Positions 1 through 43,463 of a stretch of 43,507 bases of DNA are shown here, piece by piece. Made by a program: the position numbers and the translations under genes. Below the pieces are notes generated by a model that saw nothing but the letters and a program-made list of their open reading frames with translations, ran no database searches and was not told the origin of the DNA. Location: the NCBI GenBank assembly GCA_048213135.1, contig PS015160.1, positions 21,053 to 64,559 on the forward strand, given 5' to 3'. Source of the stretch: Reclinomonas americana ATCC 50394 (lineage: Eukaryota). Positions within the stretch are counted from its first letter, which is position 1. The number at the start of each line of letters is the position of its first letter.

Positions 1-2282
1 CACCTTGGCCGACAGGCCCCTCATGAACTCGCTGAGGTACTTGTTCAGCTGGTGCGCGATGGGGAGTGAGCGATAAAGAAGAAGCTTTGAGAGGCAAACA
101 AGGCGGTGAACAACAAATCACCTTGGTCGGATTCAACATCGGGAAGAGTTGCTCCGTCCTGTCACAAAAATCAGCACACACACTCGCTTCGAGACCAAGT
201 GGGGATTTGATGCAAACGCAACGGTCCGACACCCTCTATCAGCTTCACCAAGTTGTCGTAGACTTGCGGATCCACTTGCACCTCGTTCTCGTACTTGATC
301 GAGTCCTTGCCGAGGAACGAGAAGAACACTTTCCGATCATCGCGCAGATCCACGTGCTCGATGCGAAGCGAGCAGCAGCCGACAGTGTCGGCCTCCTCCT
401 CCGTGTCCTTTTCGCCACCCACACGCTGTGCGGCAACGACACACAAGTGAGCAAGGAGGCTAACAAGGGAAAAAAACTTCCTTGCTCCCTACACACGCAC
501 CAGTGCCAACGTGTCGATAAAGTACAACGCCGTAGCCCTCTGCATGGTGAACGGATCGTCCGATCGGAGATCCTTGCGGTTCTTCTTGCGGATGCGGTCG
601 ATGATGAGCGAGAGGCGGCGGGCCTTGTCGAACTTCTCCATGTCGGCCCACAACTTGAACGAGCTCTGCGCCGACAGGAAGACGTACTTGGTGCCGTTGA
701 AGAGCGGATCGCGCCAGGTGGCTGTCCAGGTGACGGCCTTGTTGTGCACAATGCCGCCCCACTTGTGACCGGCTGGCGGCTCCGGAATCTTGGCCTTCTT
801 GCCAATGTTGATGGTGATGTCTTCGGGGTACACGCGACGCTTGAAGCAGCCCTTCTTGGGGTGCTCGCCACGGCCGCGGAAGAGGCCCGGCGGCTCGATG
901 CGGTAGTTGCCGTTCTTCTCCTTGCGGCCGTCCACGTACACCCACTTGTACTTTTCCTCGGCGGCCTCCTTGGCCGCCTTCAGGGCCTTCTTCTCCTCCT
1001 TGGACATGCTGTCGCGCTTCTCCTTTTCTCGCACGTGCCAGTTCCAGATCGGGTCAAAGTTGACCCAGTCGAGCCGCTTGATCGTCTTGCCCTCCTCCGT
1101 CTTCTTGAGCAGCGGCTTCCAGTCGTTCCAAAAGTTCTCGCGGAACTTGGCGTCGTTGTAGTGCGGCAGCAGTCGGAGCACCGCAAAGTACGTGCCCCAC
1201 TCCTCCTGCTCGGGCGACAGATGCACGTCGACCTGCTCGCTCGGCTTCTTCGGATCGCCGTACTTGAGCGGAATACCGTGTGGCTGGTACTCTGGCGGGA
1301 ACAGCACGCCATTGTGTTCGAGCGTCTCCCACTTCTGACCGGCCTTCTTCGGCTTCTTCTCCCAGTACTTCTCCGTGATCACCGGCGTCACGCCCTCCTC
1401 CTTCTTCGCCGCCGCGCCCTTCTTCTTGCCGGTGCCGCCTTCGTCGTCACCGTCGTCGTCATTCCTCTTCGCGCCCCTCTTGCCACTCTTCTTGCCATTC
1501 GCCGCCGCTGCGCCAGTGGCGTCGGTGGCGGCCGTCGGCGACCCACTCTTCCTCGGCATGATCGGCTGATCTTCGTCATCCTCTGACGAAGACGAAGCCT
1601 TCGATTTGCCATTGGCCTTACCCTTCTTGCCGGCGGGCGCCGCGCGCTTGCCGACCTTGCCGGCCTTGCGCGAAATCGGCTCATCCTCCGAATCGTTGTT
1701 GTTGTCGTCGTCGTCGTCGTCGCTGCTCTCCGCCTTCACGCCCCTCTTGCCCCTCTTCGCCTTCTTCTTCTCCTGCTTCAGCTGGCTCAGCGGCACATCC
1801 GAGTCCGACTCAGCCTCCTCCTCGTAGTCCTCATCGTCCGCCGAATCCGACGACTCCACCATACGCGCCGGCTTCTTCACCACCGGCTTCGTCTTCTTCT
1901 TCGCGATCGGCTCATCGTCAGAGTCGTCCTCGTCGCTCGACTCCATCACCGCCTGCTTCTCGCGCTTCACCTGCGCCACCGTCTTCTTCCCCGCCGCCGG
2001 CTTCGGCTTCGGCTTGGGCGCAATCGGCGCATCATCGCTGTCCTCATCATCGTCGACCTTCATCTTCTTGGCAGCAGCAGCTGTAGCAGCAGCAGGTGGC
2101 TTCTTCATCAGCGCCGCCAGAGGCACGTCATCGTCACTATCTGACGATGACGACGACGATGAGGCATCATCGTCGACCACTGCGCGCACGGCTGACACTG
2201 GCGACTTGACTCCATTAGGCGTGGACGGCTTGGCGCGCTTCATCAGCGGCGCATCCTCATCACTGCTGCTGTTGTTACGCTC
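1..2282 (-). CDS. TOP1: DNA topoisomerase IB (partial: 5' exon lies in the N gap, 3' end runs off the window)
   Basis: Long K/D/E-rich N-terminus, then [34 protein letters not shown] and [37 protein letters not shown], ending [25 protein letters not shown]. Introns at 500-426, 222-159 and about 122-49; acceptor at 2283. Confidence 0.97.
159..222 (-). other. Intron with shifted donor C|GTTGCGT (TOP1)
   Basis: CC|gttgcgt...cag|G ACG restores [12 protein letters not shown] in frame; 64 nt. Confidence 0.85.
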
Positions 2283-2339
2283 CTGCGCCACACACGTTGT
2301 GTAAGCACCGCACGCTCAACTGGTCAAAAGACAACTCAC

Positions 2340-3086
2340 NNNNNNNNNNNNNNNNNNNNNNNNNNNNNNNNNNNNNNNNNNNNNNNNNNNNNNNNNNNNN
2401 NNNNNNNNNNNNNNNNNNNNNNNNNNNNNNNNNNNNNNNNNNNNNNNNNNNNNNNNNNNNNNNNNNNNNNNNNNNNNNNNNNNNNNNNNNNNNNNNNNNN
2501 NNNNNNNNNNNNNNNNNNNNNNNNNNNNNNNNNNNNNNNNNNNNNNNNNNNNNNNNNNNNNNNNNNNNNNNNNNNNNNNNNNNNNNNNNNNNNNNNNNNN
2601 NNNNNNNNNNNNNNNNNNNNNNNNNNNNNNNNNNNNNNNNNNNNNNNNNNNNNNNNNNNNNNNNNNNNNNNNNNNNNNNNNNNNNNNNNNNNNNNNNNNN
2701 NNNNNNNNNNNNNNNNNNNNNNNNNNNNNNNNNNNNNNNNNNNNNNNNNNNNNNNNNNNNNNNNNNNNNNNNNNNNNNNNNNNNNNNNNNNNNNNNNNNN
2801 NNNNNNNNNNNNNNNNNNNNNNNNNNNNNNNNNNNNNNNNNNNNNNNNNNNNNNNNNNNNNNNNNNNNNNNNNNNNNNNNNNNNNNNNNNNNNNNNNNNN
2901 NNNNNNNNNNNNNNNNNNNNNNNNNNNNNNNNNNNNNNNNNNNNNNNNNNNNNNNNNNNNNNNNNNNNNNNNNNNNNNNNNNNNNNNNNNNNNNNNNNNN
3001 NNNNNNNNNNNNNNNNNNNNNNNNNNNNNNNNNNNNNNNNNNNNNNNNNNNNNNNNNNNNNNNNNNNNNNNNNNNNNNNNNNNNNN
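2340..3086. other. Assembly gap
   Basis: Run of N; probably hides TOP1 exon 1. Confidence 1.
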
Positions 3087-3272
3087 GAGAGAGGAAAAAT
3101 CTGGAAATGTCGCACACACTCTTGCTCTCTTGCACGCACAGAGGCGTGCTTCTCCTCTCTGTCTATGTGGGTGTACGTGTGGGTCACACACTTGCACATC
3201 GTGCATGTGAGTGTGCTTTTGTGAGCGTGAGTCTGGACTCATGTTTATCCGCAATACAACACATACTCTCTC

Positions 3273-3303
<31 letters not shown>

Positions 3304-3519
3304 TTCTGCTCACTCACCGCGTACACTTTCTCACACAGAGACACACAATACACTGACCCACAAAAGTGCAAAAATACTCACAAATCACGGCACATTCTCT
3401 TCCACTTTTCCTCTCTCTTCCTCCACACATGTGCTCACACTGTGTCATACCTCCAATCACCGCCGGCATCCTTGCGGCTTTGTATGTGTGTATGTGTGTT
3501 GAGAGCGGAACAGTCGACA

Positions 3520-3615: not shown

Positions 3616-3653
<38 letters not shown>

Positions 3654-6655: not shown

Positions 6656-9600
6656 TCATCTCTTCGAGCGCTTTCGCGGTGGTGCATCCTCGTCCTCCTC
6701 TTCCACGCGACTGCCGCCATCGTCATCGTCGAGGAGGCTCTCATCGTCGTCGTCCGCTTCATCCTCCTCGTCTTCTTCTTCTTCGAAGCGGCGCCGCTTG
6801 TTGCCGGCGAGACGTGGTGCAGGAGCTCTTTCCGCTTCCTCTTCTGCATCGTGCAGGAAGTCGTCATCATCATCATCGTCGTCGTCCTCGTCGGCACTCG
6901 GCTGCGGCTGAGACGACGGAGCTGGCTTGCGCGGTCGCGGCGCGGCACGTGCAGCGGGTCGCTTCTTGATCTTCTTGCGCTTCGTGCGCTCTTCCTGGCT
7001 CCATGCGTCGTCACTGCTCTCGTCCTCCTCCTCCTCCTTGCCACCGACCTCCTCCTCGTCGTCGGTCTTGACCAGGTCCGACAGATCGCTGTCGTCGTCG
7101 TCGTCATCGTCGTCGTCGTCCTCATCATTGTCACTTCCACCATCGCCGTCCTCCATGGCAGAGGCCGACTGCGGAACCTTGCGAAGCACGAGTTTGTTGC
7201 CGCCACCGGCCACCGGATTCTTGCGTGGTCGCCCTCGCTTGCGCTTCTCGGTCGACTCGACGGCTTCGGCCTTGGCCTGCCGTTTCGCTTGCGTCATGGC
7301 TCGCCGCTGTCGTCGTGAGCCGGGAGCAGCCGGCGCAAGTGCCTCGTCCTCCGCTTCTTCTCCTCTCTCCACCTCAGCCTCGGGGGCCACTGCTGACACA
7401 GTCTCCGCCGCCGCCATCGCCGCCGTCTCGGCACCAGCGTCCGCAGTCGACGCCCCCTCGCTTTCGCCAGCCTTGACGGTGGGGGTGCCGCGCGGGCGAC
7501 CACGAGTGCGCCGCGGTTCGTCAGCAAGTGCACTGGGCTGTGCGTGTGTGTGCATGCAAAGGGCAGCATGAGCGGCGTGACTGTCAACAAAATAGGACAC
7601 GGAAGTGACGAACCGGCAACGGCAGGGGCTCGAGACCGTGCTTGGCACGAATCTTGTTGATGAGCTTGGCCTTGGTGCGCTCGGGATCGGCCGAATTGTA
7701 GATCTGCGAGTGGCCTACTTGAGCGTGTGTATCACTCACCCGCGGGACACCGACGAAAAAACAAAACACACCCTATCCCACTGCGCATCGGTCAACTGGT
7801 CCGAGTACATCACCGTGTCGCGGACGCGTTTGCCACGACCCAAATCCTGCAGCTTCGGCTTCAGCTCCTCCGCAATAGTGGTCTCGGCATGGCGAATCCA
7901 GTCTGGCAACTCCCAGTCTTGCATCAGCCTGTCCACAAAACAGATGAGGACACCGAAAAAACATGCATGCATTGAGGGCGTGCCATCTTGCCGTACCTCG
8001 GAGCACCGCCTTCGGGGACACCACGACCCATGTCCACCCACGTGCGCAACCGCAGCTCGTCGAGTTCCTTGTCAAGCTGTGCGGCATTCACAGAAGGTGA
8101 GAAGCCACAATTGAACGGATACACAGACATGCAGCAGATTGACCTTGGCAAACAGGATTTCTTCGTCGTCGTTGCGAGCCAACATCTCGTTCAGCTCGTC
8201 GTCGTCCAGCAACCGCTGGTCGTTCTCTGTCGTGTTCTCGTTGGAAAAGATGGCACGCTGCACGGGAGGAAATGAGAATCTTTGTGAGGAACAGAGGCGC
8301 GCAGTTATTGGTACGCACCAGCAGGTCCTTGCGCTCCGAGTCGGCCGACTGTTGATTGAACTTGCCGGCCTTGATGACCTTGGCCTCGGCTTGCCGCTTC
8401 GTCGTGGCCTGCTGGAGCACGCGTTCCTCAAACACCGTGTTGGTGATGAACGTAAAGACGCGCACTTCGCGAGTCTGGCCGATGCGATGAGCTCGCGCCT
8501 ACACGACACGTGGTGAGAGCACAATCCACATTTGCAAACGAACAGAAGACGCTCACCTGCGCCTGCAGATCCTGCTGCGGATTCCAGTCCGAGTCGAACA
8601 GAATGACCGTGTCGGCAGTCTGCAGATTGAGGCCGAGGCCACCGGCGCGGGTGGAGAGGAGGAAGATGAAAATGTCCGAGTCCGGTGCATTAAAGGCCGC
8701 CATGATCGACGGCCGGTCTTCGCTCTTGGTGGTGCCGTCGAGGCGGCAGAACGTGTAGCCGCGGTACTCGCAAAACTCCTCCAGCAAGTCGAGCACTTGC
8801 GTCATTTGGCTAAAGAGCAGAATCTGCACAGCGATAAAATGCACAAAGTGTGAGTACGCGACTGGTAGGTGAAGAGTTGACAATACCTCCCACGAAACTC
8901 GATGTTTGGTGCGCGCATACTTGTAGCAGATGCGGTCCAACAACTCAAACTTGCCCGAGGAACGAATGAGGTCCTCCACGCACAGGTCGAGGTCCTCCTC
9001 CACGTGCAACAGTGGGTGGTTGCAGACCTGCGGAAATTGATGAGCAAGGCACCGCACGGGAGATCACAGGCAAGGAAAGAAGACCTTGCGCAGTTGCATC
9101 ATGCGATTGTTGAGTGCCTTGCTCTTCTTGCCTGTGTTCTCCGAGTTGGTGATGACGCGGCCGGCCTCGGTGATCTGCTTGTACAGAATCTGCTGGAGTG
9201 CCGACATGTCGCAACGCAAAATGATCTCCACTTTTTCGGGCAGCTGGCCGAGCACCTGTGGAAGGGGGGTGCGGAATGTGAGACGACGCGTTAAAGAGGC
9301 CAACGTTATGCACGCCGGGAGCGTACCTCATGCTTTTCACGTCGCAGGATAAACGGACGCAGCACCGAATGCAGTTGCCACACCAGAGCCTCTTCGACTT
9401 CTGGATCTGTCTCCACCTGCGCGAAACACCTTAGACCGGATCGACAACTTGCGCCCCCATTCTTGCCAAGCTCAAACCTTCTCGCCAAACAACGGCGACT
9501 GGAACCACTCCTCAAACTCGGTGGCATTCTCGAAAATGTCGGGCAGGCAGAAATGCAACAGTGCCCACAGCTCGTTGAGGTTGTTTTGCAGCGGGGTGCC

Positions 9601-10021
9601 GGTGAGCAGAATGCGGTGCGAGGCACGCAGTTGATTGAGGTTTTTGACGAGCTTGCATCCGGCATTCTTGATGCGATGGCCCTCGTCGATGATAATATGG
9701 CGCCACATTACTTTGCGGAACGCCGGCAAATCCGTGTCACGCAACAGGAATTCGTACTGCAATGGTGGTGGTGGTGGTGGTGGTGGTGGTGGTGATGGTA
9801 AGAAAGAGTGGAAGCAATGCAGGGAGCTTATCTTCTACAAACATGCGCACCTGCGTGATCATAATGTTGAACTTGCACTCGGACATTTCCACGGCCGCGA
9901 TGCGTCGGCGCTCGTCCTTGTTGCCCTTGTACATGACAAAGGTGAGCTCGGGCGCCCACAGACTCAACTCCGACCGCCACGTGTCGAGCATACTGTGTGA
10001 GGAGTGAGGAAAGAGCAGAGC

Positions 10022-10052
<31 letters not shown>

Positions 10053-12084
10053 TGGTGGCCTCGAGACGCAACGCGCACGGCACGACAATCAGGTGCGGGC
10101 CCTTGATGCCCTTCATCTCGTTCAGGTACGCCAACAGCGCAATGGTCTGGATGGTCTTGCCGAGACCCATTTCGTCGGCCAAGATGCCATTGAGATTGTT
10201 GTTGTACAGCGACACCATCCATTGCAGACCGCGGAGCTGAAAGCCGACAGATATTAGACAATAATGGAAAGGGCGAGGAAATAGAAAGACAGCAAGATAT
10301 GAAGAACGAACGAACGCACCTGGTACTCCTTGAGCTGTCCGCCCACCAGCATCTTCGGCTGCACGGCAATCTCCTCGGCCTCCTGATGCGTCTTCATGTA
10401 GAACTCCTTGGTGCCTACAAGCGCCTTTGTCAATACGACGTACATCAACAAACAAAAATGATGAGAACGGAGACGCACCGACACCCTCTGGCGGCACATG
10501 CTCCTCCTCTCCGTGCTCTCCACCCTCGCCACCGTCGCCAGCCATGCGGGCATCGTCACTGGCACCAGCAGCGGCTCGTGCCGCGTCACGCTTCTTCACA
10601 ATCATGGCGGAGATACGAGCCATACAAGTCTCGGTCTTCTCAATGAGTTGCACCAGGCGCGTCTTTTGGGCGTTCTTCATCAGTGCCTTGTATTGCTCCA
10701 TGTCGGTTTCCTGAAGGGGAGGTCACGCGGGTCAGATGGGTGGGGAGAGACGAGGGGAGATAATGCATTTGCACTCAACTCGCAACAAGCGGAGACGCTC
10801 GCGTTCCTGTCGCTGCTGCTCCTCCAGGCGTCGTCGCTGCAGCTCCACCATCAGATTCTGCATGGCGCCGGCCAGACGGCGGGCACTGCTCGTGCGGTCC
10901 GTCCATCTGCGTGCACCAGTCGTTAAACGTGAGAAACCATACACCGACTCAAAAATGCCCCCGATCACGTACTTGCGCATGAGATTCTCACGATGGCGTG
11001 CCACCGAATCGAGAAACACGTGCCGCTTGCTCTGCACGGCTCGCATCTGCTGCTCGCGAACACGCTGTGACGGGCGACAGAAGTGAGTCCACACATACAA
11101 ACACACACGAGCAGATGCCTGTCACGGTCCACACCAGTTCACGCTCGTGCTTCTGCTTGACCAACTGCACCGCCTTGTCCTTCTCGTCCAACATGTGCTG
11201 CAAGGAGAGAAAATGCGCGCTCAGTCGCCCTTCTTCACACATGCAACATGGTGGTGATTATTCGCACCTGCAGATGCAAGCGATGGCTCAAGCACGTCGG
11301 GTCGAGCTTGGCGGCGTGAGCCGCCAGCAACTCGCAGCGCGTGAGGTACTGCACGAGTCGCATCTCCACCGTGCGCTTCTCGGACAGGAGCGTCTCGCGC
11401 AGCGACGGGCACTCGATGGTGGGGATCATGGCTGTGAAGCAGGTGAGGCGGGGTACAAAAAACGAAGCACGTGAAAGAAACACAAGTGTGTCGACCTGAC
11501 AGCTCTGCTACTCGTCGCTGGTGCGAGTGAACAATTTGCTGATGTCGCTCCTCGGTCAGGTTGTGTGCGGCACGCAGCGATACATACGAGGTAGCCATGT
11601 TTTCCGTGTCGCGGAAGGCCGTGGCCTCCAAGCCAGACGGGTCGTTCTGGGTGGAGCGCAAGGGACAGATGAGATCGGAGAACCGCAAGCGATGCACCTC
11701 TCCACACGCACCGCGCGGATGCCCTGCAACATGCCCGTCTGCGCCAGCTTCCACTCACGAATCTGGTCAGCCACCGCCGCACGCTGCGCGTCGGTGAGCG
11801 GATGGCGGTTCGCTGGACCCCAGACGGTGAGATGATGCACCAAGCAACGAAGAGGGGGGGCGGGAGACGTACCACTGCTCTGCAACGCCTGCGCGTGCAG
11901 CTCAGCCTCACGTCGCTCGAGCAAGTCCAGCAACGCGCACAGCGTTTTGCACTGGCGCATGGCGGTGTGCACGCCGGCTTGAGCGAGCGCCGCCACCATC
12001 TGCGAAGGGAAAGCGATCAGGGGAACGAGGGAAGGACTTGTCGTTTCTTCCAGGGACGCTCTCTCTCTCTCACACACACACCCA

Positions 12085-14031: not shown

Positions 14032-17000
14032 TCACACCATTCCCAGATCCTCGAAATCCTCATCGTCGTCCCTGTCCTCGTCGACCTCACGCAGCGGCAA
14101 TCCACTCGGTCGCACCAACGACAGTCGCCCACTGCTGCGCCCGCTACTCTGCGCACGCGCACTGGGCGCGGCCGATGATCGCCCACCGTAGCTTCCGCTA
14201 CTCGTTCGACTGTGCGTCACCGATGCCTGGCGACCGCTCCCACTCGCACTACCACTGCCACTGCGTCCCGACAGCTTGCTGGTGACGTTGGTGGCGGCGT
14301 TGTTCTCCTGCTCCATCTCGCCAAGACCAATATTAACGGCGGCGACGGCAGCCTCGAGACTCAACAGCTCGGCCGACGGCGAGCGGCGCAAAACGGGCCC
14401 GGCACTTGCCGACCGATGGAAGCGCGGGCGAGGTGGCACGCGGTCCGCAAAGCGAGCATGCAGCCGGTATTGTTCCAGCTGGAACTGCAGCTCCTGGTAG
14501 TCGGCGCGCATCTTCTCCTGGTACGGCACTCCGTTGTAGGAGAGGACGCAGCCGAGGTCAATGAACATGGCCTTGGCGCACTCGGTGCAGCTCTGTGTCG
14601 ACGTGCGCAGCACCAAGAGCAGCTTGTGTCGCTTGGTCTCCTCCTCCAAGCGCGCATTGCCCTTGCCGCCCTTGCGGAGCCGCCTGCATGTCACAGTTCA
14701 GCGGGCGAGTGAAGGCACGCGTTCAGCAGATGACACACACCGTGGATCCATGATCGTCAACTCGAAACTCTCGAGCATACGCAGCGCCTTTTCTCTTGCC
14801 AGTACCATCTCTGTGGCCTCGCTCCAGTAGATGAAAGCGCGCTCAATCGCCACCATGTCTTGTCGTCCACGCACTGCTTCGCGATGCGCCGCGCGCTCCT
14901 TGACCGGCATCAGCAACATCTCCCACATGTCCTCCAGGCGCTGACAGTACTGATCAAAGGCCTGTCGATCAAACGGTCGCTCACGCATCTGGGCGATGCG
15001 GAGCAGTCGTCGAGAGACCACACTGCTGGCCGTGGATCCCGACGTTGCCGCTGCCGCTTTGACGACCTTGGAAGTGGCGGCCGCCAGCAACATGCGACCC
15101 GCTGCGCCACGGTATAGAGAAATGAGACAACAAAGGGCGCGAGGACAGACACAAATGAGTGAACGCACGATCCGCGGCATTGGCTATGACGCTGTGCTTG
15201 TCGTCAAGTGAACGAGCAGCGCTTCCGGCCTTTTGCACGAGAGCGTCCACTTTGGAGGGATCGCGAGCCGAAGACTCTGCGGACGGCGGCTTCACCGCCG
15301 CACGCCGCATACGGTCGATTCGCGCATCCAGCTCCTCCAGCGACAGGTATTCCACTGTCGAAAAATTGGCAAATGAGAAGAAGCGAAAACCGGCTGCACA
15401 GCGAAGAAAAAGGCGCAACATCGCGGTGTGGCAAACACCGAGGTGGAGGTGCTCTCCGAGCCGAAATCATCACCCAGACCCTGCTTCAGGAGACGCATGC
15501 GAACGGCTTCCAGCAGCGCACGCCGACCGTAGTACTTGCTGTTGTAGGCAACACCCTCGTCTATTATCAGATGAGTAGGAATTAGCAGCCGAGGCACACA
15601 GTCATGAACAGGAAAGCAAAGCGACGACGCACTGTCACCCTCGGCGTACACCCATTCGCCGTACAGCAAGTGGCACATGAATTGCTGTGCACGTGAGAGG
15701 TTGCCGCGGTTGGGCATCGCGTCGCCGCGCGCATTCATGGATCGATACATGCGCAGTGAATCTGCCGACACGTGAATGAGAAAACGCAGCACATGAATCA
15801 TCGTGGAGGCGTCCGCAATCGCTGCCACTCACCAGGTTCGTCGTTCTGAGTCTGCATGTAGTGCCCGACCAACACCATGCCCTGCACAAAAGAGTAGCTC
15901 AGCATGAAGGAAGCACATGCAGAGATGCAGTGGTCGCTCTGCTCACCTGTCGGTGCATGGTGATGACCTTGGTGAGCGCTCGCTGTACCGACGCACAGGT
16001 CATTTGGTACCGCGCGCGTGTATCCTCATCCAGGAACGCAATGTAGCACTGAATGACTGCATACAAGTCGTCCAACTCCGACAGCTCATCCTACGGCATC
16101 TCGATCGTCAGTCACACAACCACCGCTCATCGCCCTTCTCCTCCAACTCACCATCACCAAATCGCTCTCCAACTGTACGCGCAGTCGTTCCACCACCGCA
16201 TTGTATTCGCACAGAGCACGCAAATGGACGGGCAGCGCCGAGTTGAACAGGTTGCGCATACGCAAATCCATCATCAGCAGCAACTCGGCACCCTTGGCCC
16301 ATGTCCTGCGTAACACAAACACCTCGGTGAGAAGGAAGCTGGCTCTCTCTCACTCTCCCTCTTCACGCACACACCTCTTGAGTGTGGTTGTGCGGGCGCG
16401 GCGGAAATCAACATTGGCCAGCGTGTGCAGCAAGGCGTGCCGATATGTGCGATCTTCCGGATTGGAGAGGGGCTGTGGCCGAGACACTGAGGCGCTGAGT
16501 TTCGGAAAGGAGCAACTACGTACAGCAGCGACGGTGACGCACACTGCCTGGTCGGAGCTGCCTGTCGTGTGTCGCTTGGTCGTCGCGATTCTCCCAGTCG
16601 TCGTCGTCGGACGGCAGAGTCTGCCGGGTGTTCCACGAGGACATGCCGATCGACACTTCAGAGATATTGCGCGCGTGCCCTGCGAGTCGCACACACCATG
16701 AGAATTCGTATGATCCCCAGCCACCCACACGAAATGCAAGACGCACCTGAACCGCGCATCGGGCCCGACGTCTGAGACATGAAGCTGACATCTGTGACGA
16801 CAATGTAAATCGATAGCACGGCAAACAGTAAGCAGCGCACACTCAAGCCGAACCGCCAGGTACGAGAGACGAACTCCGCGAGTGGAAACCACCTGTTCAC
16901 ATATGATGAGTGCCGTCCAGCGAGCTGTGTCTTTCTCTCTCGGGCCTCACCACTGGCGCCGAGAACGGATGGAGATCGCGCATGAATGTTAGAGAGATCT

Positions 17001-32400: not shown

Positions 32401-33559
32401 GTTGAGTTCTCAGGTCTTGCGTCGTGTGTTCATTTTTTCTGTTCTGTTTTTTCGTGTGGCTTGTGAGGAGTGCGTCGTGTCTTGTCTCGTGAATGCGTTT
32501 GTTCCTCTTCTGTCTTTTTTGTGCCACCTCACGTGTGTTAATTCATTCTCTGATCTGTCTTTCGCGTCGTGTGGTATCCTGGGTGCGTTTGTGGCTGACG
32601 CCATCATTACTCTCTCTCTCTCTCTCCTTTCGCGCAGTGCCCATCGAGGGAGTGGTGGGCCTAATTGGCGCATGTACGAACACGGGCGGCGATGCCACCA
32701 GCCCATACTACATTATTACTGAATTCATGGAGTTGCGTTTCGACGACAAAAGTTCACCACAACCTTTGCCCGCGCCCGCATCTCACCCTTTCCGTTCCTC
32801 CCTCTCCTCCTTCCGCTTACAGTGGCGGATCATTGGGCGACTGGGTACACAAGGGCAAGGGCTTGCAAGCGTCGCCCTTTCAAAAACTCGTCATTTGCTG
32901 CTCGATTGCCCACAATATGGGCGATTTGCACGCGAATGGCATCTGCCACCGAGACTTGAAGACGGAGAACATTTTGATGGACGCCTCGTATGCTCACCCG
33001 AAGGTGGCCGATTTTGGCATCTCGCGCGTGAATCGTGACTCGGATCGCGTGGAAACCATGCACACCACCACCGGCACCCTCGCCTACATGGCTCCCGAGG
33101 TGAGCTCCATGCGCTTTGTCTGTTTCAGTGCGTGTATGTGCTCACACGTGTGCGCGCGACAGGTGTTGAAGGGCGAACCATACGACGAAAAGTGCGACTG
33201 CTACTCGTTCGGCGTCATGATGAATGAGGTGCGTTACATGATTTCGACGGTCTGCTTGTGTTTTTGTTTCTCACTCGTGCCTGCAGATCATGTCGAATCA
33301 AGTGCCATTCTCAGACGTGAAGAACCAGTACGCAATCATGCATCGTGTGGCCGGCCTCAATCAGCGACCAGTGCTGTGCACGCCCGACAAGTGCCCACCG
33401 CCAGTACTGGAGCTGATTCAGCGCTGCTGGGACGGCAACTCGCGCAAGAACAAGCGACCATCGTTTGCGCAAATTGCGGCTGCGCTTGACGAGTTGGTCG
33501 GCCTCGGCGAGGCCACTATCAATGGCGCCTGTGCCGGACGAGGTTCATCCTCCCGCTAG
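29320..33559 (+). CDS. Tyrosine-kinase-like (TKL) Ser/Thr protein kinase with S/A-rich N-terminus and possible SAM-like domain; part lies in the gap
   Basis: VGSGTFGDVYEG, VAVKEI, ITEFMDGGSL, HRDLKTENIL, KVADFGISR, GTLAYMAPE, CDCYSFG, LIQRCW...KRPSFAQI. Exons 29320-29362, 29756-30018 and 30813-gap join in frame. Confidence 0.9.
30095..30550. repeat. About 134-nt degenerate tandem repeat (four copies) in intron 30019-30812
   Basis: CAATC(T/C)TGT(C/T)TGTACATTTCGCGGAACA core at 30120, 30253 and 30390, with a diverged copy at 30521. Confidence 0.9.
30998..31698. other. Assembly gap
   Basis: Run of N within the kinase gene. Confidence 1.
32060..32560. repeat. TG/TC-rich degenerate repeats in intron 31963-32637
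   Basis: CTCGTGCGTGCTCTCGTCGCTGTTCT at 32108 and 32292; AGGAGTGCGTCGTGT at 32342 and 32466. Confidence 0.75.
32732..32822 (+). other. Intron with shifted donor A|GTTGCGT (kinase hinge)
   Basis: GA|...cag|T gives ITEFMD-GGSL, the canonical kinase subdomain V spacing; 91 nt. Confidence 0.92.
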
Positions 33560-33888: not shown

Positions 33889-35718
33889 TCACAGCTCGTC
33901 GCGCTCGTTGCTGCGCAGCACTTGCAGTCGCTGTCGCAGAAGACTGGTCCAGTCAGCCGGCTCCTCGCCGCACCCCATAACGCTGACTTCGTCGCGACAC
34001 AGGAGGCGCACAGTGTTGCGCGCACCCACTGCCTCCGACTCCATGGCCGACATCTGTCGCGCGTCGTTGTGTGAGAGGTGAAGGCGCGAAAAGCAACCGC
34101 AAACGGAAGAACGCACCGTGAACTCCATGCCGTTGATGTAGTACAGCTTGGGCGCCAAGCGGAACGGCGCCAGCTGCTCCACCTCCTGCTCCGAGTACGG
34201 CGGGAGCACGGGATATGGATTCCACGCTCGCGTCGACACTACCTCCCATCCGTCGACAAACCACGCCGACAGTGAGGCATTGTCCAGCGCCTGGTGCGAG
34301 AACAACTTGTACACGCCGTCGGCGACCAGCGAGAGTGAGAGGAAGCCCGAACTGGAGCCGTCTGCGGTCAGCACGTGGTCCGGCATCTCCTCCAACGACG
34401 AGAGGCCAAAGAACGAGGCACGCGCATTGCCGCGCACCAACGTCACATGCAGCTGCAAGGTTGTTAAGTAAGGCGAAGGCGACATGAGTTGCAGCGGGGG
34501 AGATACATACCTCGACAAATCGTCGTGGCGGCGGCAAATGTGGTGCCACATCGCTGAGGTCGAGACCGTGCATGTGCTCGAGCGGAGCGGCAAGAATCAC
34601 CACGTCGAATGGCTTCATCGACTTGCCCGACGCGGTGACCACACGCAGGCGGTTGCCGTCGCGCTCCACCGCCGTTACCGCACTGTCGAGGTGTACGGTG
34701 GCACCCGAGGCGCGAGCCAGCTGCTCAATGAACTGCGCATTGCCGCCTGCACGAGCAACATACATGCGTGAGGAAGGGCGTGTGAAGGCGAGTGGTGGCA
34801 CTGTGCACGCCGTGCACGCACCGACCACCGAGCGCAGATCGTTGCCCGAGGCCACCACCGACACCATGCCAACCAGGGCATGAATGGCGGTCGCGTCCTG
34901 TCCATAGTTGCACCGCGTGGCCGCGGCCACCAGCTCATCGGCCAGCTGCGGCGTCGTGTGCAACGTGTTGAGCAGGTAGTCACGAGCCGACTCGAACATG
35001 AGCGGCTTCTCCAGCTGCAGCGCGCGCATCATCTCCACCGCCGACTCAAAGGTCGCCTCGCGCTCCGGCAGGTCGTACACCTTGCAGAAGCGCTGCAGCA
35101 TCTCCTTCGAGGCCTCATTCATGCGATACAGAGACAGCGGCCCGTATCTTGCAGCACGCGACGTGTCATGATGATCAGTTGTCTCGCAGGGGAGGCGGAA
35201 AAACAGCTGCAGATTCTCTTCTCTCACCGCCACATGAGAGACAAGGTCGTGCGCAACGAGGCCCACCAGCTGTCCGGATTCTTGGTCTCCACCTGCCGCC
35301 ACCTCCACTGCTGCCCGTCCCAAATCCCAAACGACTCGTCCCGATCCGCAAATCCCTGTCGCGTCGACAAGCCCATGGCGTCGACCCAATCGCGCACAAA
35401 TCGGTTCTCCACGTGATACACACTCGCACCGAGCTCCACAGTCATGAACTGCGCCTCACCACTCTCCTTCTCCTCATCAGCAGTGAGGCTCAGGCGGCGC
35501 AGGTGGATGGCCTCGACGCGGCCTCCCAGGCGTCCGCTGGCCTCGAATAGGTGAATGTCGTGATGATCGGAAGAGGAGGAGGAGCGAGAGGCGAGGAAGT
35601 AGGCGGCGGAGGTGCCGCCTACACCGCCGCCAATGATGGCGATGCGTGCGGCGTGCACGGTGCAGCAGGCGAGGCAGAGGAGGAGGAGGAGGGCGAGGAG
35701 GAGGAGGAATGTGCGCAT
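33889..35718 (-). CDS. PCYOX1: Prenylcysteine oxidase / farnesylcysteine lyase; four introns
   Basis: Signal peptide, RIAIIGGGVGGTSAAYFL, FEASGRLGGR, VELGASVYHVEN, LMWRYGP, ELVAAATRCNYGQ, LYYINGMEFT|MSAMESEAVGARN, C-terminal RDEL. Confidence 0.92.
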
Positions 35719-36223: not shown

Positions 36224-39200
36224 ATGCACTTGTATCATCTCACCTTGCAGCCGCCGACCTCCATCACACACGTGGTCAGCGGCTACTTTACGAGTGCACG
36301 ACCTGCACCACATGGAAGCAGTGGCAGTGGCAGTCTGGAGGACTTGATTGTGGTGCGCGGAGGTCGGCGACTGGAGGTGTGGCGAGTGAACGAGCGAGGA
36401 GCGCGGTTGCAGCCGGTGGCGATTGCCGTGGAGACCTTTGCGGTGGTGCGAAGCATTGCGGTGCTGAGGTTGGCGGGTGAGTGGTGGCGCGCAATGTCTG
36501 ACACAACGCAAGGAAGAGGAGAGAGAGATGTGCATGTGAGAGAGAAAGAGAGAGAGTGTGTGAGAGAGGCACACTGGGAGCGTACACACCAAGTGTGCAC
36601 ACAAAGCGATTGGATTCGACTTGTCTTGCATGCATGCACACTGACACAAACACACACACACACATTCACTCACTCTCTATCTCCCTTCTCCCTCCCTCCC
36701 TCCCTATCTCCCTTCTCCCTCCCTCCTCCCTTTCCCTCTTCGCCAGACGAAGAACGCGACCTTCTTGTTGTCGGCTCCGACTCTGGTCGCATTGTGATTC
36801 TGGGATACTCGGCCGAGCATGGCACACTGGAGCGCATGCACATGGATGCCTTCGGGCGCGCTGGTGTGCGTCGACTGGTGCCTGGCCAGTACGTGGCGCT
36901 GGATCCGCACGGGCGTGCAGTGATGATGGGTGCGCCTCGTGCTCTCTCGTCGACCGAATCACTGGACTCACTCGCTGTCCTCAGCCGCCGTCGACCGTCA
37001 AAAGCTGGTCTACACGCTCGGCCGCTCATCATCGACGGGCCAGCTGTCGATTGGCACGCCACCGATTGAGGCACCAAAGACCTCGTCGGTGATGTTTGAC
37101 TTTATCGCGCTGGATGGTCCCGTAGACGGCAATCCGCGCTTTGCGTGTCTCGAGTTGGACTACGCGGCGGCGGATGCTGACCCGAGTGGCGAGAGTGCGG
37201 CGAATGCGGAAAAGGTAGATTCGGGAAGTCGCGGTGGGTTGAAGGCCGTTGTCTGACGGGTTGTTGTTGTTGTTCTGCACCACGCAGTTGCTTTCGATTT
37301 ACGAGGTGGATCTGTCGTCGTCAGCGGTGCAGCGTGTAGCGTCGGTGGCAGTGGCTCGCTCCGCGCACGCCTTGATTGCAGTACCGGCGGGAAGCGAGGG
37401 TGCTGGTGCGTTCTGGCGTGATTGAGTGACCACCAAGTCATCATCACTCTTGTTGATCTCTCGTCTGTCCATCTCGTTCAGCGCATTTCTTGGCACTCTC
37501 AAACAATCCCGTTCTCTCCCTCCGATTTTGTCAGACATTCTCGCACTCCTTCCCCCTGTCTTGTTTACTTGCTGCTCCCACTCTCTCTCTCTCTCTATCT
37601 CAAAACACGTTCAATCGTGTACCTTGCTTCTGAGCCCACCCTATCTCCTTGTTACTCCCTCTCACCTCCCTTCCCCCTTCTTCCCCCTTCTCCCCTCCCA
37701 TCTACAGGCGGCCTCTTGGTGTGCTCGGAGGGCTTGCTGTCGTACTGGAATCCCGACGCAGCAGGAGCGGCCATTGAGGCACCAATACCACGTCGCGATA
37801 CGCAGCCGCTATCGGAGCACGTGCTGATTGTGGCGCACGCGGTGCATGCCCCCGACCGCAACGTGTTCATCTTGCTGCAGAGCGAGTCCGGCGATCTGTA
37901 CCGCGTGCAAATCGGTGCCGCTGCACTCACCATCAAGTACTTTGACACGGTGCCGACTGCCAACGCTTTCTGCTTGCTGCGCTCCGGCATGTTGTTTGTC
38001 GCGGCGGAGTTCAGCAATCAGTTGAGTCTCGCGCATCGTGTAATAATGGCTGTGGCAGCACTTCCTCATCTCCACCTCTCGCAGCAAACTGTACCGACTG
38101 GAGAGTCTCGGGGAGGAGGACGAAGACGAGCCGGGTACGGTCTCGGTGCCTGACTTTGGCGAGGTGAGCATTCATCTTCCCTTTTTTTGTTCGTCTGATG
38201 CAGCTCACGCTTTTACTCAGGTTCCCACCTTCCGTGTGCGACCACTGCGCAACTTGTCGCTGCTTGACGAAATTCCGTCGCTGTCGCCGACGCTGGACAT
38301 GGTTGTGCGCGACGCCGCTCGAGTCGGCTACCCGCAGCTGTTTTGTTCCACGGGTCGCAGCTCGCAGAGTGCGGTGCGTGTCCTGCGACACGGTCTCCCC
38401 GTGACCACTCTCGCCGTCTCCGAGCTGCCGAGCAATCCGTCGGGAGTGTGGAGCGTCAAGCGATCCGTGAGCGGTTCGGCAATTGTGATGCCTCTCTTTT
38501 TTGTGTGGCAGTCATCTCATCTGTATGCCTGCAGATGATGCCGATCGGTACATTGTGGTGGCATTCGACAGCCACACCCTTGTGCTCTCCGTCGGCGAGA
38601 CCGTCGATGAGGTGACAGACAGCGGATTCCTCGGCAACGTGCCGACATTGTGGGTGTCTCTGCTGGCCGACGACACGCTCCTGCAAGTGCACCCTGCTGG
38701 CATCCAACTAGTGCACTCTGACGGTTCGGTGAACGACTGGCGGACGCCGGGACGCAAGACCATTGTGCGCGCGGTGGCGAACCCGCGACAGGTGGTGATT
38801 GCACTGAGTGGTGGCGAGTTGGTGTACTTTGAGTTGGACCAGAGTGCGCACGCTCTGCGCGAGGTGAAGCAGATTGGTGTGCAGCAGGAAATCGCTTGCC
38901 TGGCCATTGCACCGCTGTCGGAGGGAGAATCACGGTCGCGGTATATGGTACGTGTGAAGTGCCGTGATCGCTGTCTCTCATCTCTTTGTATGTGTGTATT
39001 CTCACATGGCCTACGCGCACAGGCTGTGGGCTTGTACGACAAATCCATCCGCATCCTGTCGCTTGCGCATGAGGCTGACCAGTTGATGCACTTGGTCACT
39101 CACCAGGTATGGCGTGCCGTCTATTTCTGTGTGCCCCTACCGTGTGGATTGTTGATTGATGTGTGATCGCACTCGCAGAATCTGTTGCGTGAGCCATTCA

Positions 39201-41558
39201 GTGTGCTGCTCACTGAGATGCGCGGATGGAACGCCGGCGGAGCGAGCACGGTGTTGTACTTGTATGTGGGCTTGACCGACGGCACCCTCCACCGCTCAAT
39301 ACTCGACACGCGAACTGGTCGACTGTCGGAGCCGCACACACGGTGTGTGACGATTTGCACCCTCCCCACTTGCCACGTTTCACCAACCTCTCAATGCTTC
39401 TGTGTGTGCATAAATGCAGCATGGTCGGTGTACTCCCAGTTCGGCTCTCATCAGTGTCGGTGGCCGGTGGTCCTGGCGTGCTGGCACTCTCATCGCGGTC
39501 GTGGCTGTGCTACAATCATCTCGGGCAGTCGCATGTGACGCCGCTGACGTTGCGTCCGCTCGTCGATCGTCGGTGTCGTGGACTTTGCACGCTGACCATG
39601 CACTGTCTACTGTAGATACACCAAGCTCGATTATGCTTCCGGGTTCGTCTCCGAGCCGTGTCCAGAGGGCTTTGTGGCCGTCAGTCAGAACGAGTTGCAG
39701 TTGCGTTTGCTCGGCGTTGTTCTCTGCTTTTACTCGTTCCATCATCCTCAACGTGTATTGTACCCTCACAGCATCATCAATGCGGAGCACCTGGGCGAAT
39801 GCTTTAATCAGCAACGGATACCGCTCTACTGCACGCCGCGACGATCGGTCATGTTCCCCAATTCCAGTCGGCTCATCGTGATTGAGAGCGACCATCGATC
39901 ACCGCCCATTTCCGATCGCGCGGCTGGCGAGACGAGTGCAAGTGCTGGCGACGGCGACTCGATGGATGTGGATGTTGCGTGCAGTGGTACTGGGTGGTGG
40001 GTGCTGCTCTCCGCGCTTCTCACGGGCGTGGACAGGGTGGTGCTGCACCGGACGATCTGGCGTTGCCGGCCAAGGCGCCACCGGGATCGTGGGCTTCGTG
40101 TGTGCGGGTGCTGGATGCGTCGGCGGTGCGCACTTGCCCTTCCCGCTGCGCAGTTGTCTCCGTTTCATTGACTCACGACCATTGACTGCAGTGCACGACA
40201 CTGGACATTGTCGAGCTGGAGGCCAACGAGGCTGCATTCAGGTACCATTTGACAAAGCCTGCATGTGATGATATCGTGTGTGCTGATGCGCCCTCCACAG
40301 CCTCGCTGTCATCGGTTCAGGCTCCTCGACGGTGGTGGTGGTCGGCACCGCCAAGAACGTCACCCTGCTTCCATCGCGCACCTGCTCTGCTGCCTTTTTG
40401 CACACGTACAGACTATCGGCAGACGGCAAGTTGGAGTTGATGCACACGGTTCGTGGTAGTGGCACTCTCTTTGGGGCTCTCGTTTGTTGGTGCTGACCCT
40501 GTAAGCTCAGACGGAACTGGAAGACATTCCCTTTGCGCTCGCTCCCCTCGACGATCGCCTGCTGGTTGGCTGCGGTCGTGTGCTGCGCATCTACGAGAAT
40601 GGGAAGCGGAACCTCGTGCGCAAGTGTGAGAACAGAGTTGCGTGTCACTCGCAGCCCTCTCTTCCCCATTATCACCGCCACCTCTTCTGACGCATATCCC
40701 TCCCTCCACAGAGTCTCCCCGACATTGTGCTGAGTTTGCGTACGTTTGGCGATCGGATCTACATTGGCAATGCCAGCGACAGCTTCCTCTTCGCCTCGTA
40801 CCACCGCGGCGACAATGTCATTCACATTTTCGCCGAGGACAACACGCCACGCATGCTGACGCACGCCGCAGAGCTGCTCGATCCCGACACGGTGGCGGGT
40901 GCCGACAAATTCGGCAACGTGTTTGTGTGCCGCCTGACCAGGGACCTGTCGGACCCGACGGCCACGGCGGGCGGCGTCACCGACGATTTCGTGCCGCGGA
41001 TGCAGTGGGAGCAAGGGTACCTGACGGGCGTGCCACACCGAGCCGATGAGATTGTGCAGTTCTTTGTCGGCGACGTGGTCACCGCGCTCTCCAAGTGCGC
41101 CTTCTCGGCCAGCTCGGTGGAGACGCTGGCGTATGCCACGGGTTTGTGAGAGAATTGCGATCTCAGTGGTGGGTGAGGTGCTGACTGTTTGCGATGGTGT
41201 GACAGTGATGGGCGCCGTGGGCAGTCTGACGCCCATTGCGACCACGGACGAGATTGAGTTCTTGCACGGCCTGGAGCTGCAGATGCGACTCGAGAATCCA
41301 CCCGTGTGTGGGCTCGAGCACATGATTTACCGCTCGTCGTACTTCCCCGTGCGGGTGCGTTTCGTTTGTGACATACTCACCGCGACGCCGACTGACATTC
41401 ACACGCACGCACACGCATAGGCGGTGGTCGACGGCGACTTGTGCGAGCAATACTTGGTGCTGCCGGCGGAGAAGCAGCGGCGAATTGCCGCCAAGCTCGG
41501 TCGCTCGCCGGGAGACGTAATGCGTCGGCTGGAGGAGTTCAGAGCGTCGATTCTCTGA
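36224..41558 (+). CDS. SF3B3: Splicing factor 3B subunit 3 (SAP130/Rse1), divergent; 19 introns
   Basis: MHLYHLTLQPPT, VVGSDSGRIVIL, FGRAGVRRLVPGQYVALDPHGRAVM, IKYFDTVP, LVLSVGETVDEVTDSGFLG, NPRQVVIALSGGELVYFELD, AGADKFGNVFV, YRSSYFPVR|AVVDGDLCEQY. Confidence 0.96.
38021..38084 (+). other. Intron with shifted donor A|GTTGAGT (SF3B3)
   Basis: CA|...cag|C gives AEFSNHKLY (compare SEFGNHYLY); 64 nt. Confidence 0.92.
39549..39615 (+). other. Intron with shifted donor C|GTTGCGT (SF3B3)
   Basis: AC|...tag|A gives TPLTYTKLDYASGF (compare TPLSYETLEFASGF); 67 nt. Confidence 0.92.
39700..39771 (+). other. Intron with shifted donor A|GTTGCGT (SF3B3)
   Basis: Gives VAVSQNELHIINAEHLG (compare VAISTNTLRILALEKLG); 72 nt, in frame. 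Confidence 0.85.
39974..40035 (+). other. Intron with shifted donor T|GTTGCGT (SF3B3)
   Basis: SMDVD|GGAAPDDL...PGSWASCVRV; 62 nt, changes frame if retained; lies in a variable loop. Confidence 0.78.
40637..40711 (+). other. Intron with shifted donor A|GTTGCGT (SF3B3)
   Basis: RKCENR|SLPDIVLSLRTFGDRI (compare RKCENKHIANYISGIQTIGHRV); contains an in-frame TGA; 75 nt. Confidence 0.92.
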
Positions 41559-41789
41559 AGCAGCACAAGGTGGAGAAGAGGGGGTGGAAAATGGTAAAGG
41601 GAATGCATAGCAGAGATCGTGAAGAACAAGGAAAAAGGAGATCAAGATCTCAAGTTCGGTCGTAACGCCGCCGTATACAGCGCTTTCGACTCTTTGCGAG
41701 GGAATAGAGGCTCCAGCCGACAACATCGATGTCAACTTCAGAGCGACGTCCCGTGGGACCTCTTTTCAATCACGCACACACGACGAAGC

Positions 41790-43053
41790 ATGGTCCGTGG
41801 AGGCACTCGCAAGAAGTCCGCTCGTCGTGACGACGACGAAGTCGACTCCGCCGCCGCCGCAGCAGCAGCAGCGGAAGAGCAACCCGACGAAGTCGAAGAC
41901 AATGAAGGCGACAACGACGACGACGGAGACGACGATGGCCAGCCGGCGCGTAAACGGCGCAAGACAGCAACGGCCGCTGCTCGCTCGACTGCCGCGGGAA
42001 AGAAGGGAAAGAAGGCGGGAAAGGCGGGCAAGAGAGGCAAGGTGAGAGATGACGCACATGTGTGTCACACACGCACGCGCATGCAAGTTGTCTCCGATTG
42101 CAGCATCGTGTTGTTGTGTGAGGGCTTGCGTCACGCGATGCAGAGAGCGTGACAGGAGAGAGAGAGAGAGACAGGATGTGTGAGTGTGCATTGGAGGGAC
42201 GAGATAAGTTGTCTTGCATGCACCCGATCACGTCTGCAGAACGAGTGAGTGAGTTCCTTGGGCGAGAGGCATGTTGTCTCACATGGCGACTACACAAGCA
42301 CTCTATCGCGTGGAGAGTACGAGAGTGAGCGCTTTAGGCGAGAGATAAATTGTCTTGCATGCACACCGTCACGTCTGCAGAACGAGTGAGTGAGTGTCTT
42401 AGGCGCAAGCTGTCTCAGACGGCAACTGCACACGCACTCTATCGCGTGGAGAGTACGAGAGTGAGCACTTCAGGCGAGAGGTAAGTTGTCTTGTATGCAC
42501 CCGTCTCCTTGGGCGAGAGGCAGATTGTCTCAGATGGCGACTGTGCTTGCATTCTATCGCATCTGCGCAGAGTGTGTGAGTGAGTGAGTGCCTCGAGCGA
42601 GAGACATGTTGTCTCAGACGGCGACTATGTCGCTTGCGAGTGGAGATTAAGTCATTGGGCACTCTTGGCGATACGCACCGTGAACACCTTCTCTGCTGCT
42701 GACACCCTCTTTGCCGCCCACAGAAACAAGCCGAGGAGGAGCCTGAGGAGGAAGAGGAGGTCGAAAAGGAGAAGCAGGAGGAGGAGCTGCGCAGCGTGCA
42801 GGTGCGTCGACTGCTGGAGGACGAGGCGGCGTTCCGCAACACTGTCGATCAGATCTTTGAGGAGGCCGACAGCGATGGAAGTGGTGAAATCAGTCTGGAG
42901 GAGTTTCGAGCGGTGCGTGTGTGCGCTGTCGATTGGAACGCAAAGTGCACGCCACTCTGAACTGGCTGTCTTTTATGCAGATGCTGGTCAAGTTCCACAA
43001 GGAGACGCATGTGGATGGGCGATATGTGCCGAATAAGCGACAGATCGAGGCCA
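41790..43053 (+). CDS. EF-hand protein, N-terminal part (acidic/basic low-complexity head, first EF-hand)
   Basis: MVRGGTRKKS...PARKRRK (NLS-like); VDQIFEEADSDGSGEISLEEFRA at about 42844-42912; introns 42042-42723 and about 42913-42980. Confidence 0.85.
42170..42660. repeat. About 137-nt degenerate tandem repeat in intron 42042-42723
   Basis: GAG(A/G)TAA(G/A)TTGTCTTG(C/T)ATGCAC at 42201, 42342 and 42478; CTCTATCGCGTGGAGAGTACGAGAGTGAGC at 42301 and 42437. Confidence 0.9.
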
Positions 43054-43080
43054 GCTGCGTTTCTGTGTATTTCGTGCATA

Positions 43081-43100
43081 NNNNNNNNNNNNNNNNNNNN
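43081..43100. other. Assembly gap (20 N, probably a placeholder)
   Basis: Run of N. Confidence 1.
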
Positions 43101-43463
43101 GGAGCGGCCTTGGGCTCGTCCACTGCCATCGGAGCTGCATCGGCGGCTTTGCTCTTCGCAGCCTGTGTGCACGGCGAGTGAGTCACAAGAGGTAGCGATC
43201 GAGAGCACGAAATGGCGCACCTCGCGCTGCTGCTCCAGCAGCTGCTTGTGATGGTGGAACCAATCATTCATGTCGCCCATTTGCTCCTCCAGCTTGGCAA
43301 ACTTGGCGCCAATGTCCAGCATGAACTCACGAACCAGCGGTCTGCATGGGAGGTGATAAGGGGAAGGGACAGGGAGAGAGAGAAACAGAGAGGGAGAGGG
43401 GACGCAACACAAACTCCTCCTTGGTGATCGATCCGCTGCGATCGACGTCGATCTGGTTGAACT
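43101..43463 (-). CDS. Second EF-hand plus coiled coil; probably the continuation of the 41790 gene on a flipped contig
   Basis: FNQIDVDRSGSITKEEFV|PLVREFMLDIGAKFAKLEEQMGDMNDWFHHHKQLLEQQRE|AAKSKAAD. Confidence 0.8.
43342..43408 (-). other. Intron with shifted donor T|GTTGCGT (EF-hand gene)
   Basis: GT|...cag|A gives KEEFVPLVREF, completing the EF-hand F helix; 67 nt. Confidence 0.82.

Follow-up and report, generated by a model that had tools for sequence, protein, structure and literature searches.

A frequent class of GTT-type 5′ splice sites after non-G exon ends in Reclinomonas americana, possibly read one base out of register

We have identified a second class of 5′ splice site in a 43.5-kb stretch of Reclinomonas americana DNA (contig PS015160.1; referred to throughout as the window). 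Introns of this class begin with GTT, carry the ordinary donor consensus displaced one base downstream, and are found after exons that end in A, C or T. The evidence from the window supports these GTT-type donors as a real and distinct class. On the sequence patterns described below, we lean somewhat towards the view that they open genuine major-spliceosome GT-AG introns whose 5′ splice site would be read one base out of register. The window, which has ~58% G+C outside four masked N stretches and in which short introns are abundant, is the sample on which all results rest.

Results

An initial annotation of this DNA had claimed 21 donors of this kind. All 21 strings were found at their positions and on their strands, and the last exon base before them (position -1) is A in 11, C in six, T in four and G in none, as claimed. 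For every one there is an acceptor (CAG in 20/21 and TAG in 1/21) that gives a GT-AG intron 58-97 nt long, and a YTNAY branch-like motif lies 8-45 nt upstream of the acceptor in all 21. Donor position +3 is T without exception. The positions that follow are G in 19 donors (+4), C in 19 or A in two (+5), G in 20 (+6), and T in 18 or C in three (+7), a profile that mirrors the ordinary consensus at +3 to +6 (G 28, C 27, G 38 and T 28; n = 42). The heptamer GTTGCGT occurs 17 times on the two strands, versus 9.5 ± 2.8 in 100 dinucleotide shuffles, one of which reached 17; 13 of the 17 copies are listed donors. Two exonic sense-strand copies, at 39184 (+) and 9745 (-), form Leu-Leu-Arg codons. They lie 6-12 nt past an acceptor, are apparently unused as donors, and could serve well as natural controls in defining the other features of the GTT class.

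U12-type introns are characterized by an RTATCCTT 5′ splice site and a branch site resembling TCCTTAAC. ATCC was found at +3 to +6 in none of the 21 donors, and their branch-like motifs are YTNAY, the same as in ordinary introns.

Donors were placed with a dynamic-programming gene finder, whose initial intron model held GT, AG and a flat penalty and which took hints from tblastn alignments of homologues. This motif-blind finder picked all eight listed sites in SF3B3 and in the SNF2/Brahma-type ATPase gene (hereafter SNF2); in Top1 it picked a 37-nt intron at 195, not the one at 222. Every intron of SF3B3, SNF2 and Top1 was also scored by homology, in which each frame-keeping GT-AG alternative within ±60 nt was assessed by local alignment to 12-14 homologues with no donor motif. 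Eight of the nine listed sites in these genes rank first, and the ninth (39974) ties or stands second by 8 points in 840. The same scoring moved four ordinary-donor calls of the gene finder (8041 to 7996, 39095 to 39107, 40280 to 40242 and 9490 to 9477), and therefore does not simply confirm the model fed into it. The homology-placed set comprises 35 introns, and the -1 base was unused at every placement step. Three ambiguous SNF2 introns (11125/11134, 8128/8143 and 7767/7771) were dropped from this set; the best-scoring alternative follows G in each. An extended set adds 26 introns of 45-130 nt from other genes that were common to two gene-finder runs.

The exon's last base separates the two classes of donor. 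In the homology-placed set, none of the nine GTT-type donors follows G and all 26 other donors do (Fisher p = 1.4e-8); in the extended set, the counts after G are 0/19 for GTT-type versus 38/42 for the others (p = 3e-12). The statement that the GTT form never follows G while most ordinary donors do is borne out, at 0/21 versus 38/42. The class had been put at about one in five introns; it is indeed common, and its share in the homology-placed set is 9/35 (26%). To our knowledge, G at -1 in 26/26 non-GTT donors of that set is a share above that of most eukaryotes. Among the 23 non-G exon ends of the extended set, 19 have the GTT form, and the rest are three perfect GTGCGT donors and one weak GTCTGC. 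The rule had been described as one-directional, with some non-G exon ends keeping ordinary donors. Such donors do exist, but in the homology-placed genes the split is perfect both ways. Phase 2 accounts for 9/19 GTT-type introns versus 5/42 others (p = 0.006), an enrichment consistent with use at exon ends from which coding excludes G.

These placements bear directly on whether the class could be an annotation artefact, in which the GTT strings would be unused and either nearby GTs would serve as donors or the segments would be coding or retained. The placements are predicted from sequence, the gene finder erred elsewhere (8041, 39095, 40280, 9490), several sites lie in orphan genes, and GTTGCGT also serves as Leu-Leu-Arg codons (39184, 9745). 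Yet scoring by homology alone backs 9/9 testable sites. Of 20 modelled GTT-type introns, 14 have a length that is not a multiple of three and 10 meet a stop codon on read-through, and the perfect split at -1, which was unused in modelling, is unexpected from random misplacement (p = 1.4e-8). We therefore consider an artefact very unlikely. Gene-finder runs misplaced or missed GTT-type introns until the class was permitted.

Ordinary donors had been summarized as mostly GTGCGT, GTGAGT, GTACGT or GTTCGT, but they are less uniform than this, since 8/26 homology-placed ones are weak (GTAGAT, GTACCA, GTATGG, GTTCGG, GTCTTC, GTTTGAG, GTACGG and GTGATT; located at 37215, 40242, 39107 and 38474 on the forward strand and at 9084, 9477, 7996 and 121 on the reverse strand). 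All eight follow G, and it seems that a poor intron side is tolerated where the exon ends in G. We also observed a recurrent donor form after G, in cgg/GTTTGTGAG at 41142 (+), cgg/GTTTGTGTC at 24428 (+) and aag/GTTTGAGCT at 9477 (-), the slash here and below marking the exon-intron boundary. The donors at 41142 and 9477 were placed by homology, and the donor at 24428 is preferred to a/GTACGT at 24401, across which the PARP motif SNKYV runs on. The string g/GTTGCGC at 8050 was considered as an exception to the avoidance of G and rejected. The actual donor is gag/GTACGG at 7996; an Arg precedes LM..ELP.W in 66/72 homologue matches, and the closest homologue reads through 8041-8050.

The composition at -1 also speaks to how the site might be read. 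That of GTT-type donors (A 11, C 6, T 4, G 0) is close to the composition at ordinary -2 (A 16, C 12, T 9, G 5; p = 0.16 for G) and is unlike that at ordinary -1 (G 38/42; p = 5e-13). The complete absence of G may be explained by this -2-like composition with no extra avoidance rule: G makes up 12% at ordinary -2, so that 21 sites should contain ~2.5 G, with a probability of ~0.07 for none. Among the 42 other introns, none begins with GTA, GTC or GTG followed by the shifted core without G at +5; the single regular-expression match for the shifted core, GTATGG at 39107, carries G at +5.

Nearest-neighbour pairing energies were calculated for two U1 5′ ends, the human sequence (as printed in PMC4856993) and a hypothetical one matched to GUGCGU. 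With human U1, the shifted register and a bulge at +3 give -1.3 versus +2.5 kcal/mol when A is at -1, and +1.7 versus +4.0 kcal/mol when C is at -1. The corresponding values with the hypothetical matched U1 are -9.2 versus -5.4 and -6.2 versus -3.9 kcal/mol. At non-G exon ends the shifted register thus lies 2.3-3.8 kcal/mol below the +3 bulge in both models. Both also give more stable pairing in the shifted than in the canonical register; the organism's own U1 may differ from either sequence. When the sites were folded one by one against the 5′ end of human U1, the registers were mixed and the energies of GCGU sites near zero; only the register-by-register comparison of energies is informative.

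The alternative to which these energies apply is that U1 pairs canonically at -1, +1 and +2, one U of +2/+3 loops out, and pairing resumes at +4 to +7. A bulge of this type at +2/+3 is accepted in humans, where PMC4856993 gives 68 predicted sites and 54 after curation. It accounts equally well for the extra T and the displaced GCGT, and with G at -1 the model energies of bulge and shift are about equal. A canonical anchor, however, should retain the preference for G at -1 seen in 38/42 ordinary donors, and the GTT class has 0/21. Any base could be looped out, whereas +3 is T in 21/21, and for the non-G sites at hand the bulge costs 2.3-3.8 kcal/mol more than the shift. We judge the bulged arrangement unlikely. 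The initial annotation had argued that -1 mimics canonical -2 and that this favours a shift over a bulge, and the -1 profile, the constant T at +3 and the energies all agree with it. These three features and the shifted consensus would be predicted by a shifted register and not by a bulged one, and they favour the former.

A further explanation is historical. The GTT form could be the footprint of its origin, as an inserted intron family or as a one-base slide after a G-to-T change at +1, and would then reflect no selected recognition mode. AG/GTGCGT and A/GTTGCGT are one substitution apart when aligned as blocks, so a single change interconverts them, and invasive intron elements have been reported from other protists. 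Among the 35 homology-placed introns, however, just 16 10-mers are shared, about half of which are simple repeats (CT, TG or TGCA runs), and there is no family-wide similarity; past the donor, GTT-type introns have nothing in common but low-complexity 10-mers. A one-base slide would call for a compensating one-base change at the acceptor if the frame is to hold, an improbable event for a quarter of introns, and the sites would still need some form of recognition. We regard a mere footprint as highly improbable.

The individual sites fall in genes that differ in how well they can be placed. In Top1 (1-2243, -), the intron acc/GTTGCGTT...ACAG at 159..222 (-; 64 nt, phase 2) ranks first of eight alternatives, and homology is ungapped across the junction (homologue SKQP-ADQVFHLLNPSI). 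SNF2 (6656-11194, -) holds three. The intron cga/GTTTCGTG at 8824..8898 (-; 75 nt, phase 0) ranks first of 21 and was picked by the motif-blind finder; cgc/GTTGCGTC at 9993..10072 (-; 80 nt, phase 2) ranks first of ten; and cga/GTTGAGTG at 10711..10779 (-; 69 nt, phase 0) ranks first of five, with a stop after 15 codons of read-through. The site at 10072 scores 2474 versus 2387 for an ordinary-looking GTGCGC 6 nt upstream, and it keeps the helicase motif spacing PCAMLDTW, which the GTGCGC alternative would shorten. Microsatellites occur within this and two other short introns (9993-10072, -; 9757-9850, -; 37215-37287, +) as (CT)n, (CCA)n and (GTT)n.

SF3B3 (36224-41558, +) has five GTT-type introns. 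The first, tca/GTTGAGTC at 38021..38084 (+; 64 nt, phase 2), ranks first of 23; its split codon CA/C restores the conserved His of EFGNH-LY, which pins this predicted junction to the exact base, as cleavage one base later would give Gln. It is followed by gac/GTTGCGTC at 39549..39615 (+; 67 nt) and gca/GTTGCGTT at 39700..39771 (+; 72 nt), both in phase 2 and each first of 15. The phase 0 intron gat/GTTGCGTG at 39974..40035 (+; 62 nt) is second of six, scoring 833 versus 841 for GTGGATG 6 nt upstream, a rival that follows T and lacks G at +5. The last, aga/GTTGCGTG at 40637..40711 (+; 75 nt, phase 0), ranks first of seven and meets a stop after 17 codons of read-through.

Several sites lie next to or inside recognizable domains. 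In the protein kinase gene (about 32640-33559, +), gga/GTTGCGTT at 32732..32822 (+; 91 nt) has no other in-phase GT nearby, and the downstream exon opens at Pkinase profile position 83 with GGSL and carries a clear kinase core; the 30-aa upstream exon alone, which is too short for such a search, had no match in Pfam or PDB. In the EF-hand gene (42652-43507, -), tgt/GTTGCGTC at 43342..43408 (-; 67 nt) lies inside the EF-hand itself, since the upstream exon stops within the profile (positions 5-21 of 25, E = 1.1e-6); the spliced product reads ...ITKEEFVPLVREFML. The PARP-domain gene (about 23983-24428, +) contains ctc/GTTGCGTT at 24149..24219 (+; 71 nt), which links the frame of RIQN with that of LFHCS...GFD...YFA. 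A TGA lies three codons past the donor, and the downstream exon matches the catalytic domain PF00644 (E = 1.4e-4).

As an observation on the same PARP gene (23983-24428, +), the motif order is RIQN ... LFHCS ... GFD ... GVYFA ... SNKY, with the PF00644 match (E = 1.4e-4) in one exon. The catalytic His of PARP domains is usually followed by Gly-Thr; here Cys-Ser directly follows it.

The GNT-I-like gene (25224-28687, +) has two sites, both chosen in all gene-finder runs: cga/GTTTCGTG at 26964..27033 (+; 70 nt), with no second in-phase GT nearby, and aat/GTTGCGTT at 27599..27663 (+; 65 nt), with a stop after 10 codons of read-through. The GNT-I Pfam profile coordinates are too weak to test either. 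The intron caa/GTTGCGCA at 22886..22951 (+; 66 nt) was placed by gene-finder runs. For the weakest listed site, aaa/GTTGCTTG at 23487..23544 (+; 58 nt), the donor of which is GTTGCTT, the string and a GT-AG intron are present. A gene without usable homologues holds gat/GTTGCGCC at 15355..15419 (-; 65 nt), placed by two gene-finder runs; its length is not a multiple of three, and a Pfam search gave it no support. The remaining four sites lie in an orphan gene with one match (E = 2.5e-5) among 1.84 billion representatives. They are ttc/GTTGCGTG at 17641..17709 (-; 69 nt), cta/GTTGCGTG at 19091..19168 (-; 78 nt), cca/GTTGCGCG at 19251..19339 (-; 89 nt) and gtc/GTTGCGTT at 19443..19539 (-; 97 nt). 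Those at 17709, 19339 and 19539 come from gene-finder runs only, and the lengths of the latter two are not multiples of three. Read-through at 19168 halts at once because exon TA and intron G form an in-frame TAG. The sites at 19168, 19339 and 19539 are soft, as they hinge on short upstream exons without a homologue.

Top1, SNF2 and SF3B3 were named by homology, and a prenylcysteine lyase gene is also present at 33889-35718 (-). Database matches to Top1 reach 59% identity at best, with most at ~50%, and are spread over fungi, plants and excavates; a metagenome scan with a Top1 exon found eight loci at 32-51% identity, none near enough for a comparison of intron positions. The proteins that best match SNF2 and SF3B3 lack names or are labelled 'uncharacterized' and come from entries for an ostracod, a rotifer, a moth and a bee; for SNF2 these stand well ahead of the rest (E = 1e-61 to 1e-52 versus 1e-42). 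Such invertebrate assemblies may contain relatives of the window's organism as contaminants or symbionts. The N runs are at 2340-3086 (747 bases), 5062-6060 (999), 30998-31698 (701) and 43081-43100 (20); the apparent low-GC stretches in the composition profile are due to these four runs. An open reading frame of 394 codons (3876-5057, +) sits between the first two.

Discussion

Our preferred reading is that of a shifted register. An ordinary site G/GUGCGU can be regarded as a seven-base block, G-G-U-G-C-G-U, that would be cut after its first G. The corresponding block of the second class, G-U-U-G-C-G-U, would be cut before its first G because that is where GU sits. U1 small nuclear RNA (snRNA) would pair with the same seven-base block in both classes: intron G(+1) would substitute for the absent exonic G(-1), U(+2) would be the single mismatch to U1, and U(+3), G, C, G and U(+7) would pair as do ordinary +2 to +6. 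The catalytic spliceosome would then set the cut at GU, perhaps with a matching shift or a looped-out U in the later pairing with U6. G+6/U+7 would be one base farther from the cut than ordinary G+5/U+6. As they are just as conserved, the U6 ACAGAGA box would have to pair across a spacer lengthened by one base, unless a second variant of U1 or U6 serves the class. Of the initial interpretation, the real class, the link to non-G exon ends and the -2-like base at -1 stand, and the cleavage point and U1 register are what we infer. In its more general form, which we put forward tentatively, 5′ splice sites in this organism may routinely be defined in two steps: U1 would read a fixed G-N-U-G-C-G-U block wherever the exon ends, and the cut would be made at a GU in block positions 1-2 or 2-3.

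A dedicated variant snRNA could read the GTT class, for instance a second U1 changed opposite U+2 or a variant U6, which would amount to two spliceosome populations. This is a form of the same shifted-register idea, and we hold it to be rather unlikely. The class is tight and frequent (9/35), as a dedicated reader would give. The abstract of an Entamoeba preprint reports U1 coevolving with altered splice signals, and variant U1 genes are reported in humans. Against it, a single U1 in the shifted register already covers the data, and no snRNA gene was detected in the window, where an Rfam scan gave nothing at gathering thresholds and, at E <= 1, four chance-level matches of which none was an snRNA.

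Several points weigh against a shifted register. The comparison of -2-like with -1-like composition draws on 21 sites. With human U1, GUUGCGU sites are weak in any register, at ~0 to -2 kcal/mol, which implies either a different U1 in this organism or a large share of the recognition by proteins and U6. Perfect GTGCGT donors are also seen after non-G exon ends, as at 15168, 15632 and 24585, and the shifted form is therefore not obligatory. G/GTTGAGA at 22647, which the initial annotation had set aside, is a candidate exception to the absence of G. Its use would extend the exon by 22 codons, but these score -1.7 versus +31.5 and +25.2 for the flanking exons (103 and 56 codons) and look noncoding, as if intronic. 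Twelve of the 21 sites, in genes without usable homologues, depend on reading frame and coding potential for their placement, three or four of them being soft. Most sites had been said to be forced by frame or conserved motifs. Nine have homology support; of the twelve, the intron at 22886 is a multiple of three without an in-frame stop, so frame alone does not force it, and 23487 is weak, having been picked in no gene-finder run. The site at 24149 has an in-phase alternative, c/GTCGGT at 24128.

The closest precedents are human. Roca and Krainer reportedly described, in 2009, a U1 register shifted by +1 at atypical human 5′ splice sites. One-base-shifted U1 pairing is reported at some human sites (PMC4856993, PMC11162779), and the total for all validated noncanonical registers is estimated at 1.5% of human 5′ splice sites (PMC4856993). 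Like the GTT class, human shifted-register sites keep GU at +1/+2, the remainder fits the consensus one base downstream, G is at +6 rather than +5, and G(+1) would pair in the place of G(-1). The two differ in frequency, as the GTT class makes up 9/35 homology-placed introns, including 9/9 of those after a non-G exon end, against ~1.5% for all human noncanonical registers. They differ also in the core, which is GCGU here and AAGU in human shifted sites, and in the kind of evidence, since our register derives from sequence statistics and the human one from suppressor U1 experiments. The bulge +2/+3 register (Roca et al. 2012; Tan et al. 2016, PMC4856993) likewise has an extra U after GU and then a displaced consensus; the GTT class, however, lacks the preference for exonic G(-1) to be expected of a canonical anchor (0/21).

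In U6 pairing, G+5/U+6 interact with the ACAGAGA box (PMC11162779). A tandem donor of STAT3 with a noncanonical U6 register, reported in the same source, indicates that the G that pairs with ACAGAGA is not always five bases from the cut. Flexibility of this kind would be required of the GTT class should U6 pair with G+6/U+7, although the STAT3 distance is one base shorter and that of the GTT class one longer, and a single human site is being compared with a whole class (PMC11162779).

The ordinary consensus in the window, AG/GTGCGT, is the same unusual one as the GTGCGT(G) donors of mamiellophyte algae (PMC2483917, PMC3879977). The passages on these donors in the two sources mention no GTT-shifted class, and the protein identities (best 59%, Top1) indicate that the window does not come from a sequenced member of that group. 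Our literature search turned up no lineage with an abundant shifted class, although a species-specific report may have been missed.

Conclusions

The transition from U1 recognition to the exact cut in the spliceosome is still a matter of debate, and work on noncanonical registers has so far dealt with scattered human sites and used engineered U1s. If our reading is correct, about a quarter of a genome's introns would depend on a register flexibility that is marginal in humans, and the organism would provide a natural system in which U1 positioning is uncoupled from the choice of cleavage site. Should the class extend genome-wide, it would offer hundreds or thousands of natural tests of how far the pairing of U1, and perhaps U6, can slide. 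In practical terms, gene finders trained on GTNNGT donors would misplace or miss about a quarter of this organism's introns. For the organism itself, the consequence would be that introns can follow exon ends that coding keeps from being G, such as second codon positions, which would explain how introns persist at exon ends that are unable to be G.

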